Origin: a virus
Reading direction: 5' to 3' (one strand)
Virus record (IMG/VR): IMGVR_UViG_3300029552_000001
Length of the DNA stretch: 64,000 nucleotides
This document shows positions 45,484-52,503 of this stretch, in pieces. Position 1 is the first letter of the stretch; every line of letters begins with the position of its first letter. The notes beneath the pieces were generated by a model. It was given only the letters and a program-made list of their open reading frames with translations, was not told the DNA's origin and made no database searches. The position numbers were made by a program, and so were the translations under genes.

Positions 45484-45852
45484 TTATTTCCCCTCATCTT
45501 TTAATATTAATTTCTTCCCGATCTTTTTAATTTTTGTCGGTCTTGATAATCGATAGTCTCTTTCTATCGGTCTATTAAGTACATCATCCTTGTGCCCCTT
45601 GTATCCTTTCTCGTAAGCACTAACCCTTGCGCAAAACTCAACCACATCGCCTGGCGATAAATCAGCACCACTAAATCCTTTTGTTAAATCGAACCACAAA
45701 TGATCTGATACTATTTTGCTATCAAGTGTCACATCTTGTAAAAGCATCGTTTTTACAGGTCCAATGTATCCATTCCTAAATCCCAATCTAACAAAGGTTG
45801 CTGTAAACACATGGCGTCCTTTTGATCCTATTGTTCTCAACTCTTCTCTCAT
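45484..45852 (-). CDS. hypothetical protein
   Basis: 122-aa ORF. No named domain recognised. Confidence 0.55.
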   Translation of the reverse strand: MREELRTIGSKGRHVFTATFVRLGFRNGYIGPVKTMLLQDVTLDSKIVSDHLWFDLTKGFSGADLSPGDVVEFCARVSAYEKGYKGHKDDVLNRPIERDYRLSRPTKIKKIGKKLILKDEGK

Positions 45853-45860
45853 CTCCTTTC

Positions 45861-46658
45861 TTATTTTTTATTCATAAAACCAGTAATTTTCTTCAAATAC
45901 CCTTTTGTCATCTCAATAAAGTTCACGCAATCCAGCTTGCTCAACTTGTAAATCAAAGCCGGGTTATGAATTACGGCTATAATTTGTGTTTGCGGTTTAT
46001 GAAATGACAATACTTTGTACAGATCCATGATATTGTCAATATCTAAATTCCTGTCCGGCTCATCCATAATGATTGTATACTCAAAATCCTTCTCCATTAA
46101 TACCACATGATTGTCTTTGTAGTATTTTAAAAGATTGTCGATCCTGTTTGCCCAGAACTCATTTGACTTTTTCTTAAATTCCATAAGTTTCTGTATCGGA
46201 AACGCATACTCATCTTGGTTAAACACAAAATCAAAAAGCGAGTTCATGGCATGAAGGTTCTTCTCCCCAGAGGACCTAGATGCTCCATTCATATACAAAC
46301 TTAAATTATTGATATTATCCAATATATCATCCTTTCTCATTTCAGTTTGCTGTAGGAGATGGAATACCTTCCCGATATAATCCGACTTAATACTGATCCC
46401 GTCAAGCACCTTGTCATCATCAAATATATCCGGGAAATACAATGCTTCTGACGGTAATTCAGAACACATCTTTTTCTCGCACAACATGTACTTCGATATC
46501 ATATTCAGGAGGGTTGATTTCCCGCTCCCGTTCTTGCCTACAATCACATTCACGCCGGGCTTGAATATAAACTCAGAGCCATTTTTGAACGCTTTTATCT
46601 TTTGGATATATTTAAATGGAGTCTTCTTGTTGTCGTCTATCCTTATAGAAGTTATCAT
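45861..46658 (-). CDS. stand-alone ABC/AAA_21-type ATPase
   Basis: 265 aa with GKNGSGKSTLLN (Walker A), RSSGEK (signature-like), IIMDEPDRNLD (Walker B / D-loop) and AVIHNP (H-loop). Confidence 0.78.
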   Translation of the reverse strand: MITSIRIDDNKKTPFKYIQKIKAFKNGSEFIFKPGVNVIVGKNGSGKSTLLNMISKYMLCEKKMCSELPSEALYFPDIFDDDKVLDGISIKSDYIGKVFHLLQQTEMRKDDILDNINNLSLYMNGASRSSGEKNLHAMNSLFDFVFNQDEYAFPIQKLMEFKKKSNEFWANRIDNLLKYYKDNHVVLMEKDFEYTIIMDEPDRNLDIDNIMDLYKVLSFHKPQTQIIAVIHNPALIYKLSKLDCVNFIEMTKGYLKKITGFMNKK

Positions 46659-46679
46659 CTTATATGATTTTGTGTTGAA

Positions 46680-46919
46680 TTATTTAAGCCTTTCATTAAT
46701 TGCCAAATCAAATATCTTATCAAGACATTTCCTCATCTCCGCCGCCCCGATGATCGCCTTTCGATTCCCGAACGAGAGCCACGAAGTAATGAACCCACTG
46801 ACCTCCGCGTCCCGCCCGGAATACCGCCTTGGGAACTGGACGGGATCGCTGGCAATAAAGTCGGCGGTTTCGTATTTGTCCGCCATGCATTTCGGCATGT
46901 CTACAAATTTGTCATTCAT
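46680..46919 (-). CDS. N-terminal fragment of a TIGR02757/DUF2400-family protein
   Basis: 79 aa. FIASDPVQFPRRYSGRDAEVSGFITSWLSFGNRKAIIGAAEM fits the recalled N-terminal pattern of proteins that are normally about 250 aa. Confidence 0.5.
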   Translation of the reverse strand: MNDKFVDMPKCMADKYETADFIASDPVQFPRRYSGRDAEVSGFITSWLSFGNRKAIIGAAEMRKCLDKIFDLAINERLK

Positions 46920-46922
46920 TGT

Positions 46923-47696
46923 TTATCCCTTCATTTGTTCGCATGCCAATCTTTCAAGTTCCGGTGTAACGTTGGTATTCATTATGCCTTTCAAGCAAGG
47001 GCATTGTCGCCAGACTATATCATAAATCTTTGACAATTCAATCAAAGCCTCATTGTTTGATTCAACTGTCATAATCCAATTGTCCGGCGATATCTCTATC
47101 TCCCTGCATGGTATTTCTTTCTTGCCTTTTGGCATATATCCGTTCTGATAGTCTTTTACATTACATCTACCAAAATATCTTCCAGTGAGTATTCCGTTTT
47201 CGTCCGTCTCAAACAACCCTCCTATCCATCCTATCTTATGGATGTTCTCCGTCCACGTTCGAGTGGCGAATAAAAACTTTTTTACAGGAACTTTTGAAAA
47301 TGCATCAACATCATGGATACTCCCGTCCGGCTCTTTGAATATCGATGATTTTCTTTTATTCTGGCAACTCCCGTCTAAGCCTATTTTTTCCCATTCGCCA
47401 TCGTCAAATCTCAAAGGAGAGATTATATCAAAACTGCAAAGTTTCTTGACGAGATTGATTTCAAATGGTGCCGAGAATCCGCTGTTACCATGAGAAGAGA
47501 ACAGCGCGACAGCTTCTATTACCTGTTCGCGCATCCATTTGTTAGGACCGTCCTCTTCTTTGCTATATCCGGCTAATTCCAATTCTCTTATCGCATGTTT
47601 ACATAAATTACTGTTTGCGATAATATACCGAAGAGCCTTCTTGTTGATAAGGCTCTTCTTGCTCATTTTCTTTACAATTCTTCTACTCTTTTTCAT
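46923..47696 (-). CDS. hypothetical protein
   Basis: 257-aa ORF. Its last 12 codons lie in the 36-bp repeat copy A. Confidence 0.55.
   Translation of the reverse strand: MKKSRRIVKKMSKKSLINKKALRYIIANSNLCKHAIRELELAGYSKEEDGPNKWMREQVIEAVALFSSHGNSGFSAPFEINLVKKLCSFDIISPLRFDDGEWEKIGLDGSCQNKRKSSIFKEPDGSIHDVDAFSKVPVKKFLFATRTWTENIHKIGWIGGLFETDENGILTGRYFGRCNVKDYQNGYMPKGKKEIPCREIEISPDNWIMTVESNNEALIELSKIYDIVWRQCPCLKGIMNTNVTPELERLACEQMKG
46929..46964. repeat. 36-bp direct repeat, copy A
   Basis: CTTCATTTGTTCGCATGCCAATCTTTCAAGTTCCGG matches 52468..52503 at 35 of 36 positions. Confidence 0.9.
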
Positions 47697-47736
47697 GTTT
47701 AATGTTATTTAATGTTTTAATCACCAATCTCCTCTA

Positions 47737-47871
47737 TCATTCGTATTGTGCCATGACCATCTGTTTCGCGAAATCTTTGTACGCCACTATTTTTCGCAGG
47801 TTTGCTCGCATTCGTATTTCCCCGATACCGCCGACCGGAGACAAGGCGCCTGTATTAACACCTCTTCCCAT
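47737..47871 (-). CDS. small hypothetical protein (44 aa, below the track cutoff)
   Basis: AAGGAGG lies 7 nt upstream of the ATG. Sequence MGRGVNTGALSPVGGIGEIRMRANLRKIVAYKDFAKQMVMAQYE. It fills an otherwise empty GC-rich gap. Confidence 0.4.
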   Translation of the reverse strand: MGRGVNTGALSPVGGIGEIRMRANLRKIVAYKDFAKQMVMAQYE

Positions 47872-47904
47872 GTTTATTCCTCCTTGTTATATAATTGCTT
47901 GTTT

Positions 47905-48321
47905 TTATATTCCAACATCCTTCCCATCCTCTTTAACCCAATTAACTGTATCGCAATACCAACAATACCCTGTCTTGGAATCCTTTTTATGAGAATGGGA
48001 TCCACATGTGGCGCACCAATAATTATCATCCATATTGTATGTATAACTTTCATCCTCATGCATTTTGGCTATTCTAGCTACCCTATCCTCCAGCAGATCC
48101 TTTAGATAATGGCATTCGTAAGGTCTATCCTCTTCCTTTAATATATAAATATCGATATCCATCATGCTCCCCATCCTGTCCGTACACATACACTCGGCGG
48201 CATGGCGCACGTTCCCTTCCGGCATCCCCGGAACTATCTCCCGGATCACCGCCTCCATCTTCTCTTGGTATTCGGTGTCTACCTTGACCACCAAATCCTC
48301 TAATTTATCTATTAAACTCAT
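47905..48321 (-). CDS. hypothetical protein with C-terminal Cys pairs
   Basis: 138 aa with CATCGSHSH...CWYC. Confidence 0.55.
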   Translation of the reverse strand: MSLIDKLEDLVVKVDTEYQEKMEAVIREIVPGMPEGNVRHAAECMCTDRMGSMMDIDIYILKEEDRPYECHYLKDLLEDRVARIAKMHEDESYTYNMDDNYWCATCGSHSHKKDSKTGYCWYCDTVNWVKEDGKDVGI

Positions 48322-48758
48322 GATCTTTTTACTTCTTTGTATATGACATCTGTATTGTCTTCCCTATCTATATTGCAACAACAAGAATACATGCAGTAAT
48401 AACCCCTGTTATTAAATACACATCCATCACAACTGCTATCATCAATCTCTATTACCTCCAATTCTATTTTCTCCATGCCGGTATTATATTTAAATATACT
48501 ACCTATCTTATGATATCCTATATCCTTCAAATACCTTATATGATTATTTTCGTTAAATAATCGGTTGATAAATACATCCATTTTATCGTTTAGACCATTT
48601 TTATCTAATAACCCCTCGCACTCATTTTTATTAAATCCAAAGGATATCATAAAATATTTTGCCATATCAAACCTTTCCAGTTCCACCAATTTTTGTATGC
48701 ATAGCCATATTCCTTGTCTTATGCCTTCTTCTTTGGCTTCTTGCACTCTATCTCCCAT
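48318..48758 (-). CDS. Cys-rich domain protein (C-x-G-C-x-F family, paralog 3)
   Basis: 146 aa with KIGSIFKYNTGMEKIELEVIEIDDSSCDGCVFNNRGYYC. The N-terminal half is paralogous to 49065..49550. Confidence 0.6.
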   Translation of the reverse strand: MGDRVQEAKEEGIRQGIWLCIQKLVELERFDMAKYFMISFGFNKNECEGLLDKNGLNDKMDVFINRLFNENNHIRYLKDIGYHKIGSIFKYNTGMEKIELEVIEIDDSSCDGCVFNNRGYYCMYSCCCNIDREDNTDVIYKEVKRS

Positions 48759-48769
48759 ATTATTTTGTA

Positions 48770-49051
48770 TTAATTAAGTAACAATATTTCTCTTCGCTCT
48801 ATTTTGATCATTGATGGATTATCGTCATGATCATACCAATATAGATACCATATACCTCCTCTATTGGCCTTCCACATCTTCCCTTCATATTCCCCCGATG
48901 GGATCGTTACTGAATATTCTCTAAGACCCTCAAAGGTTTGTTTGGTCATTAAAGCGTATTCCTCATCAATTTCTATGTATCTCCTATGGGGCTGTTTCCA
49001 TAACATCCCACGTTTGTCTGTTATCTTAGGTATTATATTCTCTCCATTCAT
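48770..49051 (-). CDS. hypothetical protein
   Basis: 93-aa ORF. No motif recognised. Confidence 0.5.
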   Translation of the reverse strand: MNGENIIPKITDKRGMLWKQPHRRYIEIDEEYALMTKQTFEGLREYSVTIPSGEYEGKMWKANRGGIWYLYWYDHDDNPSMIKIERREILLLN

Positions 49052-49064
49052 GATGCTTTGTAAA

Positions 49065-49550
49065 TTATGTATTAACTATTGTATATCTAACACTCTCCCC
49101 ATCTTCCCTTTCGCATCCCAAGCAACCTGATTTTACGCAATCATATATATAATTTTCAAAAGCGCATCCCGAACATCTATCACACTTATCTACTCTTAAT
49201 GTCATTTCAGACATACCAACTTTATAGTTAAAGACTTCCCCTATTTTATGATACTTAATATTTATACATATAGTATCGTTTTCACTTATAGTACTGCCTT
49301 CACTTATCATATTCTCACGTCCAAACATATTGTCAATAAACTTAATCATCTCATCATTGAATGATTCGCTTTCTTCTTGCAGCTTCCTACATTCATCCTC
49401 GGTCAATCCACAAGAAGATACCAGCTCCTCTGCGGCTTGCGTCCATCGCCCGTCGTGAGCCAGCTCCTGAACCGACAGCCATACCCCTTGGTTCATGCCC
49501 TCCATTCTTGCCTTATCTAAAATACCCTTATCCTCCATATCCTCGATCAT
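49065..49550 (-). CDS. Cys-rich domain protein (C-x-G-C-x-F family, paralog 4)
   Basis: 161 aa with KIGEVFNYKVGMSEMTLRVDKCDRCSGCAFENYIYDC. Confidence 0.6.
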   Translation of the reverse strand: MIEDMEDKGILDKARMEGMNQGVWLSVQELAHDGRWTQAAEELVSSCGLTEDECRKLQEESESFNDEMIKFIDNMFGRENMISEGSTISENDTICINIKYHKIGEVFNYKVGMSEMTLRVDKCDRCSGCAFENYIYDCVKSGCLGCEREDGESVRYTIVNT

Positions 49551-49779
49551 TTAAATTCTTGTTTATTATAACAATCTCTATATCGTTTAACGTCTTATCT
49601 TTTAATATTTTTTCTACTGTTCTTGGAATGACATTAAAATCTTTATTGCTAAGCTTATTATCCACCATAATCTCAATCAACTGCTCTATGGTAAGCCCAA
49701 GCTCATTATGGATATAATTCTTTATCGCTTTATATTCCTTACTTCTGCTCATAATCAATCTCCTTTCTCTTAAATTCAC
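49528..49779 (-). CDS. hypothetical protein
   Basis: 83-aa ORF. The start is uncertain because of overlaps. Confidence 0.45.
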   Translation of the reverse strand: MNLRERRLIMSRSKEYKAIKNYIHNELGLTIEQLIEIMVDNKLSNKDFNVIPRTVEKILKDKTLNDIEIVIINKNLNDRGYGG

Positions 49780-50152
49780 CTATGTTTAATATCCCTCTAT
49801 CTCCTTCAAGTGCTAAAGAGATCGGAGGTATTGGCATATATAATTTAACTACCCCGTCATCGTAAAATGGATGCGGATATTTATGATACTTGGCAAATTT
49901 GCTCCAGCCTTTAAAGAAGTAAGCCATGGAAATACTTTCTCCATCAGTGACAAGATAATAATCATCTACATCCGGTAGCCCATCGCTTATTTTTATCCAC
50001 GGTGATTGCTTTGACCGCCATTCGGCACCGGATTTAAAACCAGAAGCAATCATCTCTTTAATGGCAGAAATGCCGTTCGGTACTCCATTTGTTCCAAACG
50101 AACTAATAACCGATCCTGCGTATTCAATCGCTACTTCTACTGTCTGTTTCAT
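49739..50152 (-). CDS. hypothetical protein with a DUF551-like C-terminal pattern
   Basis: 137 aa. SPWIKISDGLPDVDDYYLVTDG ... VKLYMPIPP resembles DUF551 (W..v.d.lP ... WmPlP), recalled from memory. Confidence 0.5.
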   Translation of the reverse strand: MKQTVEVAIEYAGSVISSFGTNGVPNGISAIKEMIASGFKSGAEWRSKQSPWIKISDGLPDVDDYYLVTDGESISMAYFFKGWSKFAKYHKYPHPFYDDGVVKLYMPIPPISLALEGDRGILNIGEFKRKEIDYEQK

Positions 50153-50391
50153 AATTCCCCTCTTGCTTTAAGTCTTTTGATTGCATCTTTTCTTGAGTAT
50201 GCACAGATCTTTTTTCCTTTAATCGTGAATTCTTTCAACTCTCTAGAAGTCGATGGGCGTCGATAATCAGGATTGAATCTCATCCCTTCATTTGACAATC
50301 TCTGATTAGAATAAATATTTTTATCGGCAGTCATCGTACTTTCCATAGCTAACATTGCTAATGTTTTGAGCATACTTCTTTTTAAACTCAT
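50149..50391 (-). CDS. hypothetical protein
   Basis: 80-aa ORF, the first gene of the leftward run that begins at the large non-coding region. Confidence 0.5.
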   Translation of the reverse strand: MSLKRSMLKTLAMLAMESTMTADKNIYSNQRLSNEGMRFNPDYRRPSTSRELKEFTIKGKKICAYSRKDAIKRLKARGEL

Positions 50392-50569
50392 TTGATTTCT
50401 ATATTTTTAAATGTTATTAAATCTTTTCTTTTTTTGATCTTGAAGAAGTTCACATTTTTGATCTTACTACATTCTATGAACCTTTCTAAACCTTATTTAT
50501 TGTTTTGAGATTGTTTACCTTTCTCAAAACAATTTCTTATCTTTCAATCTTCTTTTGCTTAGATCCCCT

Positions 50570-50686
50570 TTATATATTATAAGGTGATTGAGTCTCTTGA
50601 TAGACATAACCTGTTACCGGAGACTTTACCGCTGCGCAACTTGATAACAAGAATGCCGTACTGATAAATAAGAATGCTTTTTTCAT
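50570..50686 (-). CDS. 38-aa putative lipoprotein (below the track cutoff)
   Basis: MKKAFLFISTAFLLSSC|AAVKSPVTGYVYQETQSPYNI has a classic signal peptide plus a lipobox-like LSSC. It looks more protein-like than the overlapping 76-aa track ORF. Confidence 0.45.
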   Translation of the reverse strand: MKKAFLFISTAFLLSSCAAVKSPVTGYVYQETQSPYNI

Positions 50687-50745
50687 TGTGTGTTTGTTTT
50701 TGCCCTCCCTGTCCCCTTCGTTCGGTGGTTTCTAAATATAAAGAA

Positions 50746-50982
50746 GCGTGGGGACTATTGGATGTTACCGTATCTGAGGCTCTGGACTGCCCACCACTCA
50801 ATAACAAACAACAGCCCCACGCCTTATGATTGTATATAGTTTGCCCCTAGAGGTATAAATATAACAACATAGGCGTAGGAGGCATCTTTGTCTATCATCC
50901 CGAGTGGTTGAAATTGTCCAGATTTCAAATACGAGATAATATCTTAACGCTTCTACGTCTTTATTCTAATACGTGGGGCAAA
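50746..50982. promoter_or_regulatory. cluster of CGTGGGG motifs and long-range complementary 8-mers (candidate iteron/operator or structured RNA)
   Basis: GCGTGGGG at 50746-50753, inverted CCCCACGC at 50815-50822, CGTGGGGC at 50972-50979. TTTGCCCC at 50840-50847 is complementary to GGGGCAAA at 50975-50982. Hairpin TTGAAAT/ATTTCAA at 50908-50928. Confidence 0.4.
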
Positions 50983-51048
50983 AATAGGTAAATTACATCT
51001 CTGTAATATATTAATATGCTTTAATATAAATGAATAAATAATAACTCA

Positions 51049-51067
51049 AATAGGCTTTTCGCCTATT
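51049..51067. other. hairpin AATAGGC-TTTTC-GCCTATT
   Basis: Perfect 7-bp stem located upstream of the promoter of the rightward cassette. Confidence 0.4.
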
Positions 51068-51137
51068 ATATCTCTACACTTGTCTACATTATGATAATAT
51101 TTGTTTATTTGCTACTTGATATATATCTGTTTTATCG

Positions 51138-51145
51138 TACTTTTG
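51138..51145 (+). promoter_or_regulatory. TAnnTTTG box (TACTTTTG)
   Basis: 23 nt upstream of the ATG at 51169. Confidence 0.5.
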
Positions 51146-51168
51146 TTTACTAATAAAAGACTATTGTT

Positions 51169-51330
51169 ATGGCTACATATACTAGACCTATCCCTACGTT
51201 AAGGGGGGAAGATGCTAAAATATTTAACAAAAAAGCGGACGAGGCATTAAAAAACAGGAAGAATGCCATTGTTTTTGATGAACATATAATAGAAATGAAG
51301 AAAATTCTAAAAAAAGCCAATATGATGTAA
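51169..51330 (+). CDS. 53-aa putative antitoxin/partner of the GNAT toxin (no RHH domain)
   Basis: MATYTRPIPTLRGEDAKIFNKKADEALKNRKNAIVFDEHIIEMKKILKKANMM. Its stop lies 4 nt before the GNAT ATG, and it is below the track cutoff. Confidence 0.5.
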   Translation: MATYTRPIPTLRGEDAKIFNKKADEALKNRKNAIVFDEHIIEMKKILKKANMM

Positions 51331-51334
51331 TACT

Positions 51335-51937
51335 ATGGGGTTCTTATCCGATAACTGTACTTTTAAGCCCCTCTCTAAAGCAATACTAACTAGTTGCTCA
51401 TCATTTTCTTGTGGGAATGTGGATTTAGATAACTTTTTTACTAACAAATCTATTAAGTACGAAGAAGAATTGTTAGGTAAAAGTTATTGTTTCGTATTAG
51501 ATGATAGTCCATGTGTTATCGTTTGTGCATTCACTATTTCTAATGATAGTATTGATACCTATATATTACCTAATAGTAGGAGCAAAAAAGTAAAAAATCC
51601 TATTCCACATGAAAAACATATGAGAAGATATCCTTCTGTTCTTATTGGAAAACTTGGAGTTAATATCCATTACTCAAATAAAGGGATTGGTACAGAACTC
51701 ATGAATTTTATAAAAAGTTGGTTTGTATCCCCTTCTAATAAAACAGGTTGCAGATATATAATTGTAGATGCTTACAATAATGATAAAACGCTTAATTATT
51801 ATATTAATAACGGATTTGAATTTCTATTTTCCACAGAAAGACAAGAGATCGAGTATGTTTATAAAAACGAAAATGAAAAGTTAAATACAAGGTTTATGTA
51901 TTTTGATCTCATAAAATGTATTAGCAACATCCTATGA
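51335..51937 (+). CDS. GNAT acetyltransferase of the AtaT/TacT/KacT toxin type
   Basis: 200 aa with FSCGNVDLDNFF (compare FDCGEEALNLFL in AtaT), YPSVLIGKLGVNIHYSNKGIGTELM (motif A) and IIVDAYNNDKTLNYYINNGFEF. Confidence 0.8.
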   Translation: MGFLSDNCTFKPLSKAILTSCSSFSCGNVDLDNFFTNKSIKYEEELLGKSYCFVLDDSPCVIVCAFTISNDSIDTYILPNSRSKKVKNPIPHEKHMRRYPSVLIGKLGVNIHYSNKGIGTELMNFIKSWFVSPSNKTGCRYIIVDAYNNDKTLNYYINNGFEFLFSTERQEIEYVYKNENEKLNTRFMYFDLIKCISNIL

Positions 51938-52068
51938 GATCAAGTTAATTATTGCGATAGCTGATTACAATTTTCTGCCGATGGTGTAAACTGGTATATA
52001 ATTACCAAAAACATTTTCATTCTATTCATAATAAACTTTATTTAATGCGTTTATTCTTTCTACGTTTT

Positions 52069-52278
52069 TCATATCCACCCCCTTTGTATTACATCGTTAT
52101 ACGTTATTCCGTTATCTTGAATTAGTCTCATAAACTGATCTTCGGTATAAGCCAGAGATTCCCCTCTGTTAGCCCTCTCTATATTCTCACTCATCATCCC
52201 CATAGCCTCTATCAAGGCCGCTGAGGAGTTGGCTATCAATTTAGCCGCTTCCATTATCCTACTATCGTCCATAATCAT
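52069..52278 (-). CDS. hypothetical protein
   Basis: 69-aa ORF. No motif recognised. Confidence 0.5.
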   Translation of the reverse strand: MIMDDSRIMEAAKLIANSSAALIEAMGMMSENIERANRGESLAYTEDQFMRLIQDNGITYNDVIQRGWI

Positions 52279-52457
52279 ATTACTTTAACTTCCTCGTTCC
52301 ACAAATGTCTTTCATATACCATGGTTGTTCCTATTAGGATTCCGGTATCTTCTCCCCAATATTCAAGTATTTGACTCCTGAATTTGTGACGCAATTTTTG
52401 TATTCCTCCCTTGTTTTTATCATAAGAAGAGTAATCCGATAATCTTACTGTCTCCAT
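52275..52457 (-). CDS. hypothetical protein
   Basis: 60-aa ORF with GAAGGAGG 6 nt upstream of the ATG. Confidence 0.5.
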   Translation of the reverse strand: METVRLSDYSSYDKNKGGIQKLRHKFRSQILEYWGEDTGILIGTTMVYERHLWNEEVKVI

Positions 52458-52467
52458 CGTTTACCTC

Positions 52468-52503
52468 CTTCATTTGTTCGTATGCCAATCTTTCAAGTTC
52501 CGG
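52468..52503. repeat. 36-bp direct repeat, copy B
   Basis: CTTCATTTGTTCGTATGCCAATCTTTCAAGTTCCGG. Here it is intergenic, containing only an orphan MPELERLAYEQMK... reading frame. Confidence 0.9.

Follow-up and report, generated by a model that had tools for sequence, protein, structure and literature searches.

A GNAT acetyltransferase and its 52-residue partner as a candidate toxin–antitoxin-like module in a Bacteroidales-type phage and in Bacteroidota

The stretch of viral DNA analysed here (IMG/VR virus record IMGVR_UViG_3300029552_000001, 64,000 nt in full length, hereafter the window) carries at positions 51138 to 51937 a small cassette of two genes, one for a protein of 53 aa and one for a GNAT acetyltransferase of 200 aa. 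Judged by sequence and fold, the acetyltransferase is related to the tRNA-acetylating toxins of type II as a diverged sister. A small partner of the same family precedes the acetyltransferase gene in every locus where this could be checked. On balance we favour reading the pair as a toxin–antitoxin (TA)-like module with a new type of antitoxin, which would work most plausibly like a type II GNAT TA system. As far as its sequence tells, the partner is not a DUF1778 protein, the feature by which the known family of such pairs is defined, and the cassette should not be filed in the DUF1778 TA family. The cassette consists of the following elements.

51138..51145, + strand: TACTTTTG, a promoter box of the Bacteroidota −7 type (TAnnTTTG), read directly
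51169..51330, + strand: gene of the partner, the candidate antitoxin, 53 aa, read as an open reading frame (ORF)
51335..51937, + strand: gene of the 200-aa GNAT acetyltransferase, which its ORF, homology and AlphaFold2 model place with the tRNA-acetylating toxins
51899..51947, + strand: hairpin over the GNAT stop codon, a possible terminator or 3′ stabiliser, from its inverted repeat and folding

The two ORFs are separated by 4 nt and the box is placed 31 nt before the partner ATG. TAnnTTTG is the established consensus of Bacteroides promoters. The motif is not enriched across the window (59 sites vs 50.7 ± 7.2 expected) and for this reason the promoter call rests not on the single match but on a position that is kept across loci, as in 65 of 81 distinct homologous loci the 100 nt ahead of the partner gene contain a TAnnTTTG box, in most cases between −25 and −38. 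The hairpin has a minimum free energy of −17.9 kcal/mol (z −3.2, 1 of 200 shuffles equally good); it is AT-rich, no run of T follows it, and a scan of the cassette region for intrinsic terminators returned none.

The window is laid out as a + strand arm reaching to ~15 kb with − strand genes beyond it. Past 15.3 kb, every other + strand ORF with 60 aa or more is shadowed by one on the − strand, and only the GNAT gene is free of such overlap (0 %). The GC content drops to 0.26–0.32 over the cassette compared with 0.36–0.42 in the flanks, and the GC skew is positive only at ~51000–52050 and negative in all other intervals profiled between 48000 and 55000. A preliminary description of this DNA had given the coordinates of the two ORFs with their 4-nt spacing, seen a promoter box ahead of the 53-aa ORF, and called the cassette the only rightward unit in ~49 kb and an AT-rich insert on the opposite strand. 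The ORFs and their spacing were confirmed, the strand survey agrees on the rightward unit and the box is supported by its position in the homologous loci. The insert is borne out by the shift in GC content and skew together with a mosaic block that has no counterpart in the nearest complete phage (see the last section).

Kinship of the GNAT with type II toxins

Pfam searches of the GNAT gave only sub-threshold matches to GNAT families (Acetyltransf_7 with 25.2 bits vs a cut-off of 27), and neither NCBIfam nor PADLOC returned an informative match to the cassette or holds a model for the pair. The PHROGs database places the protein in phrog_1758, ‘acetyltransferase’, at 1e-33. When we searched the PDB sequences using phmmer, all matches with E ≤ 0.001 were type II GNAT toxins, KacT being the first (2.4e-6) and AtaT and TacT coming next; these three align over the full protein. 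An hmmsearch of the same database with the family profile returned toxins in all of the top 15 places (2.9e-9 to 1.5e-4); Naa60 came next at 2.7e-3, which is weaker than the best match by six orders of magnitude.

The structure predicted by AlphaFold2 on the basis of 86 homologues (predicted local distance difference test score, pLDDT, 91.5; predicted template modelling score, pTM, 0.87) led to the same relatives. The top 38 Foldseek matches in the PDB are all GNAT toxins (KacT, AtaT, 7byy ‘bacterial toxin’, TacT1-3, AtaT2 and GmvT) with E-values from 2.8e-12 to 1e-8 and target-normalised template modelling scores of 0.69–0.82. Non-toxins (NAT10 and Naa60) appear only from 4.7e-7 on, so that the E-values of the two groups lie at least 40-fold apart. 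We also compared the family with 13 GNATs encoded downstream of DUF1778 genes in Bacteroidota genomes, and hhalign aligned it to these canonical proteins with a probability of 98.9 % (E 2.4e-17, 28 % identity over 143 columns). The preliminary assignment to the AtaT/TacT/KacT kind is thus upheld by the sequence and the structure matches in the PDB, and the motifs quoted in its favour do align with KacT and AtaT. The type II GNAT/DUF1778 systems (AtaRT, TacAT1-3, KacAT, ItaRT, GmvAT, AtaRT2) are the nearest solved relatives, with homology over the full length of the GNAT. The GNAT differs from the canonical toxins in its length of ~200 aa, in an insertion near the C-terminus (helix 168–176 in the model) and in an identity of just 28 % within the same phylum. 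The ‘GNAT toxin’ of the cfiA element of B. fragilis was considered as another relative and rejected, as the paper describes an Elp3-like protein and hence a different family.

To see which functional positions are kept, we mapped the residues needed for AtaT toxicity (PMC7595197, also for the roles of Y144 and G108) via the phmmer alignment and read their conservation from the family alignment. The catalytic Y144 of AtaT (Y145 of KacT) corresponds to Y156 and G108 of the acetyl-CoA site to G119, and both are invariant in 86 family members; in the window GNAT the acetyl-CoA site reads as Gly117/Gly119. AtaT F30 and P84 correspond to F34 and P91, likewise invariant in the family, and R95 to an arginine or lysine at position 106. 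The lysines K77/K79/K81/K82 in α3 of AtaT, which grip the acceptor stem of tRNA (PMC7595197), correspond to R82/K84/K85/K87 and are kept as a cluster, with SRKKKVxK as the family sequence. The catalytic tyrosine, the acetyl-CoA glycine, the equivalents of R95 and F30 and the basic α3 cluster are therefore shared with the GNAT/DUF1778 systems.

The partner protein and the two-gene family

A search with the single sequence of the window partner retrieved just 11 close relatives. The genomic context revealed that a small gene (51–61 aa) immediately precedes the GNAT in Prevotella and Galbibacter as well as in a marine metagenome contig and another phage-like contig; the products are 27–47 % identical to the window partner. 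Of 91 loci collected, 89 include sequence upstream of the GNAT, and each of these contains the partner, as do all 13 additional viral loci in which this could be tested, which makes 102 of 102. The partner is 51–56 aa long in these homologous loci, and its distance from the GNAT is most often 2 nt (range −1 to +29 nt). A scan of one genome per species confirmed at least 379 stretches, and when 1.84 billion representative proteins were searched with the partner profile, 985 partner clusters were recovered at E ≤ 0.001. A close cluster relative of the window partner (P0122, 96 % identical) scores E 1.5e-14 against the family profile.

The ratio of non-synonymous to synonymous substitution rates (dN/dS) of the partner has a median of 0.23–0.39, with 96–99 % of pairs below 1, dS being near saturation in many pairs. 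The sequences thus identify the partner ORF as a real gene under purifying selection. It could still be argued that the ORF is not a functional protein and represents just the leader or regulatory region of a housekeeping-type acetyltransferase, since it lies under the usual length cut-offs, has no known domain and is known in RefSeq as ‘hypothetical protein’ only. We regard this as very improbable. The ORF stays intact and in the same position in all 102 loci despite the low identity between distant members, its substitution pattern is that of a constrained protein, and the 985 clusters share a conserved Met-Ala start.

Conservation in the partner is strongest over the N-terminal ~20 residues (M1, A2, I5, K6, I8, P9, L11, A16 and F19), which can be written as MA..I[KR].IP.L..xA..F, and there is a C-terminal ILKKA, or IL.KA family-wide. 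M1, P9, A16 and F19 are invariant in the window partner and 43 aligned homologues and Ala2 is conserved in at least 90 %. The N-terminal motif is retained even beside GNATs that are only 38–43 % identical to the one in the window. Pfam finds no domain in any of these 44 partners, including PF08681 and DUF4065. As a truncated DUF1778 protein the partner had to be rejected, since Pfam and the PDB were blank and hhalign gave a probability of 1 % against 16 DUF1778 proteins of Bacteroidota; the sole alignment obtained falls on the half with the ribbon-helix-helix (RHH) domain. Longer partners with a fused RHH domain were rejected as well. In entries of 80–113 aa the Met-Ala start is internal and the sequence ahead of it or behind it is not conserved, so that these entries are to be taken as miscalled starts or frameshifts. 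One very long protein (P0135, 5602 aa) has 14 short matches to profile positions 5–17 (E 6.6e-20 overall); either a repeated motif of the IKSIP.L kind or an artefact of composition may lie behind them.

These results bear on several points of the preliminary description. Its statement that the partner has no RHH or DUF1778 domain agrees with the Pfam, PDB and hhalign searches, and the small ORF proved to be conserved with the GNAT, the reverse of what it had named as an outcome contrary to its proposal. Its suggestion that the partner loosely resembles the C-terminal neutralising segment of DUF1778 did not hold, given the hhalign probability and the position of the weak alignment on the RHH half. 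Nor is the minimal partner a phage speciality, as had been supposed, because all members, whether on chromosomes, plasmids or phages, have a partner of 51–56 aa.

For the GNAT, we took 85 homologues from 1,336 matches for the family alignment, and the window protein is 54–71 % identical to them. The family is ~195–210 aa long and has the signature FxCG..DL..FF, GKSYCF, FTxSNDSI, NKTGCRF and Y156, of which the window GNAT contains all columns. Partner and GNAT diverge in a correlated manner (Pearson r = 0.87), and among the flanking genes none is conserved with them, the largest flanking cluster occurring in 5 of 75 loci. The module is found mostly on chromosomes of free-living and gut Bacteroidota, marine and soil genera included. 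Its neighbours vary and include a resolvase, integrases and transposase genes of the IS605 family (TnpB/OrfB) and of the Y1 type. The pair is also present on two Bacteroidales plasmids, under the RefSeq labels ‘hypothetical protein’ and ‘GNAT family N-acetyltransferase’, and Segatella copri DSM 18205 is a strain with a plasmid-borne pair; viral contigs contain three diverged lineages of it. Among 200 Bacteroidota genomes drawn evenly, not one had the GNAT family (E ≤ 1e-30); for DUF1778, the figure within this sample was 28 of 201. The chromosome of Segatella copri (G002) has three GNAT copies (2338551-2339147, 2350237-2350827 and 2609063-2609656), two of them only 12 kb apart, and Runella possesses both the DUF1778-linked kind and the kind with the 52-aa partner. 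From these sequences, the cassette family is a coherent, autonomous and mobile two-gene module with a rare and patchy distribution across Bacteroidota.

One member comes from an isolated phage. In the temperate Bacteroides phage BS-TP1 (PQ571274, ~2275-2484, host B. salyersiae BG8), an integrase adjoins a GNAT that is 38 % identical to the window GNAT. Within the annotated upstream protein gp121 (167 aa), the partner motif MARPIKNTPVLYGKDAERF begins at an internal Met (E 2e-7), and the start of gp121 was probably miscalled. We also noticed the module in metagenome-assembled genome bins assigned to Acutalibacteraceae, Lachnospiraceae, Oscillibacter and Bacilli (L031, L038, L054 and L087), with sequences that are Segatella- or Bacteroidales-like, which would mean either binning contamination or transfer outside the phylum.

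Function of the pair and known systems

In gene order the cassette follows the GNAT/DUF1778 systems: the small gene precedes the GNAT, the spacing is tight, the promoter is its own and the distribution is mobile and patchy. It departs from them in the partner, which has ~52 aa instead of ~90, no RHH domain and no detectable homology to DUF1778. DUF1778 proteins neutralise via their C-terminus, whereas the conserved element of the partner is N-terminal. An exchange of antitoxins has a tested precedent in GNAT toxins, namely clade C linked to DUF4065 (VcaA-VcaT), which was validated in PMC9177977; the partner described here differs from that one too, being far smaller and without DUF4065 or any other Pfam domain.

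The same study (Bikmetov et al., NAR 2022) defined a ‘true TA clade’ of DUF1778-linked GNATs and noted that related acetyltransferases outside this clade are preceded by short ORFs without predictable DNA-binding domains. Its description of ‘TA-like bicistronic loci outside the true TA clade’ fits our cassette, the match being one by description only. The short ORFs were called divergent there and no family was defined, unlike here, where the partners form one coherent family. A literature search found no experimental work on the family of the 52-aa partner and the 200-aa GNAT.

If the pair does act as a TA-like module, we suppose that it would do so as follows. The basic protein of ~52 aa and then the GNAT (~200 aa), encoded within a few nucleotides of each other, would be transcribed from their own TAnnTTTG promoter. 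Most likely, the GNAT would use acetyl-CoA and Tyr156 to acetylate the α-amine of aminoacyl-tRNA, or a similar polyanionic substrate, and so stop translation, and the small protein would neutralise it by direct binding via the conserved N-terminal ~20 residues. Autoregulation by RHH and operator is improbable because the partner has no recognisable DNA-binding domain, and the operon would probably do without it.

Several observations weigh against this proposal and we bring them together here. The basic residues H34/R37/R40 in α1 of AtaT are unconserved, and the family has mostly Asp at position 38. The median isoelectric point (pI) is 10.2 for the partner and 5.8 for the GNAT, whereas canonical pairs within this phylum have values of 6.8 (DUF1778) and 9.1 (toxin); the window proteins themselves have a pI of 9.8 (partner) and 8.0 (GNAT). 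The cassette family thus differs from the GNAT/DUF1778 systems in a reversed charge pattern and in the loss of the tRNA-binding residues of α1, and an acidic enzyme is less expected as a binder of tRNA. The partner profile had no match in the PDB, and with it no antitoxin. In 24 loci the partner and the GNAT share a reading frame, which allowed us to read the stop codon as Gly and model the paired sequences as a single chain in AlphaFold2, but the mean pLDDT was 61, that of the partner 24–50, and the interface was unreadable. Finally, PMC9177977 considered that such short-ORF loci may be TA pairs with antitoxins yet to be identified or may have other functions.

The reversal of charge relative to canonical pairs makes us less confident that tRNA is the substrate, and it points to another possibility: the partner, rich in lysine and invariant in its Met-Ala start, could itself be a substrate or pseudo-substrate of the enzyme. 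In one such scheme there is no toxin pair, and the GNAT acetylates the small protein, either on lysines or, in the manner of RimI/RimJ or of Naa-type N-terminal acetyltransferases, on the α-amine of Ala2 after removal of Met, the acetylated peptide being the functional product. Conservation of Met1 and Ala2, and of the N-terminal ~20 residues even beside the most distant GNATs, would fit this, as would a basic, lysine-rich partner next to a mostly acidic GNAT. Naa60, an N-terminal acetyltransferase, is among the closest non-toxin structural neighbours, strict co-inheritance suits an enzyme and its substrate as well as a TA pair, and a non-toxin role was left open by PMC9177977. On the other hand, the toxins are far nearer, with 38 toxin chains ahead of any N-terminal acetyltransferase and the 40-fold or larger gap in Foldseek E-value, and the basic α3 cluster that serves AtaT on the tRNA acceptor stem is not only retained but enlarged. 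The rare, patchy, multi-copy and mobile-element-linked occurrence with no conserved metabolic neighbour is moreover typical of selfish or defence modules. We consider this scheme possible but rather unlikely.

A variant that keeps the TA-like character would make the 52-aa protein a pseudo-substrate antitoxin, a more speculative idea that we hold to be improbable. Here Met1 would be removed and the free α-amine of Ala2 (motif A..IK.IP.L) would enter the active site of the GNAT, mimicking the aminoacyl end of charged tRNA. The partner would then block the site, or it would be slowly N-acetylated and released, a self-timed antidote consumed by the enzyme for which neither a DNA-binding domain nor a protease would be needed. 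If true, this would be a mechanism of neutralisation not described for any GNAT toxin, and it would explain the N-terminal conservation, the combination of a basic partner with an acidic enzyme and function without RHH.

GNAT toxins are a main family of translation-blocking toxins and have so far been recognised largely by their DUF1778 partner. A phylum-wide family (~1,000 partner clusters) with an unrelated 52-residue partner lacking a DNA-binding domain would add a new antitoxin type. As Pfam, NCBIfam and PADLOC all miss the module, it would also show that TA and defence finders overlook a recurrent module of gut Bacteroidota, plasmids and phages. The question left by PMC9177977, whether such GNATs are toxins or not, becomes directly testable.

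The phage island carrying the cassette

The window belongs to a large phage of the Bacteroidales type, whose − strand encodes helicases, a DnaB-like helicase and exonucleases. The cassette lies there within a mosaic block and a variable island, near a homologue of a defence inhibitor.

50583..52006, strand not assigned: mosaic block common to related phage contigs, 99–100 % identity (blastn)
46746..51998, strand not assigned: variable accessory island of ~5.25 kb (Tad3 homologue, small ORFs, structured non-coding stretch and cassette), absent from the nearest complete genome, G001
46923-47696, − strand: Tad3 homologue, 257 aa (PF25185 ‘Type I Thoeris inhibitor’, E 2.9e-34, 117.8 bits vs a cut-off of 27)

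Three related contigs carry the cassette at 98–100 % identity (blastn). L010 and L011 share 50583-52006 at 99–100 % and L009, which starts at the GNAT, matches from 51335; each of the three joins a different flanking sequence and the right-hand junction recurs at 52006-52010. In a further metagenome phage contig of 90 kb (L092), an internal deletion of window positions 51286-51865 has left a 59-aa fusion of the first 36 residues of the partner with the last 23 of the GNAT (L092:3001-3180). The nearest complete genome (G001, 146 kb, with inverted terminal repeats) misses ~46746-51998 entirely, so that window 45533-46745 (99 %) meets 51999-52466 there after ~290 nt. The cassette thus shows presence/absence polymorphism among related phages, and its deletion in L092 and absence from G001 mark it as a dispensable accessory pair. 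No tyrosine integrase was found in G001, and by its sequence the phage of the window is apparently virulent.

The cassette is ~3.4 kb away from the Tad3 homologue in the same island. A role in conflict is plausible for a cassette in such a counter-defence-type island, the Tad3 homologue being a circumstantial neighbour that does not address the mechanism. Under the TA-like reading, we infer that the phage copy is a horizontally acquired pair that may serve conflict between phage and host or between phages and not addiction of the plasmid style. The Thoeris-inhibitor neighbour, together with BS-TP1 as a cultivable carrier, would allow the use of such modules by phages against hosts or rival phages to be tested.

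A different explanation would be that the phage GNAT is an anti-defence or takeover effector which acetylates a host protein, with the small protein as its chaperone or timer. AcrVA5 is a phage-borne GNAT that acetylates Cas12a. Another phage GNAT effector, Rac of phiKMV, acts on RNA polymerase (PMC7552054). The cassette shares with both the phage-borne GNAT in an accessory or early region and the setting of host conflict; for neither of them is a conserved small partner encoded upstream known to be required, and the cassette family, unlike them, is mainly bacterial. Neither protein was among the top 50 Foldseek neighbours of the GNAT in the PDB, no direct comparison having been made.

The effector explanation gains from the location in a variable island, close to a strong Tad3 homologue and missing from the nearest complete phage, and from the lack of a tyrosine integrase in this relative, in which addiction of the plasmid or prophage style would have no obvious use. 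Phage GNATs in such roles are described in PMC7552054, and Cas12a acetylation is mentioned in PMC13728456. It loses from the fact that the same pair is mostly chromosomal in Bacteroidota, as a phage-specific target cannot then be the function of the family, and from the dispensability of the cassette. The search of viral structures in BFVD also gave no close relative, the best match (1.9e-7) being to a generic GNAT. All in all, we find it quite improbable that the cassette is an effector of this kind.

Some further features of the surroundings deserve mention. A P-loop protein of 265 aa (45861-46658, − strand), with SMC_N, AAA_23 and AAA_21 matches only at its N-terminal Walker A region, is 99 % conserved in G001 and lies just outside the variable island. 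A direct repeat of 37 bp (46928-46964 and 52467-52503, 36 of 37 positions identical, none expected by chance) brackets ~5.5 kb that include the Tad3 homologue and the cassette, and it could be a site of modular recombination. Inside the mosaic block, ~300 nt at 50690-50990 are apparently non-coding and relatively GC-rich. Their predicted folding energy is −99.2 kcal/mol on the − strand (z −6.6) and −96.1 kcal/mol on the + strand (z −5.5), with 0 of 100 shuffles as good. An Rfam scan of this stretch and the cassette region gave nothing significant, and the stretch has one match of 72 % to the faecal phage record MT835917. A TATTTTTG box is located on the − strand at 50979-50986, and an ORF of 38 aa at 50570-50686 (− strand), starting with MKKAFLFISTAFLLSSCAAV, reads as a putative lipoprotein signal peptide with a lipobox Cys.

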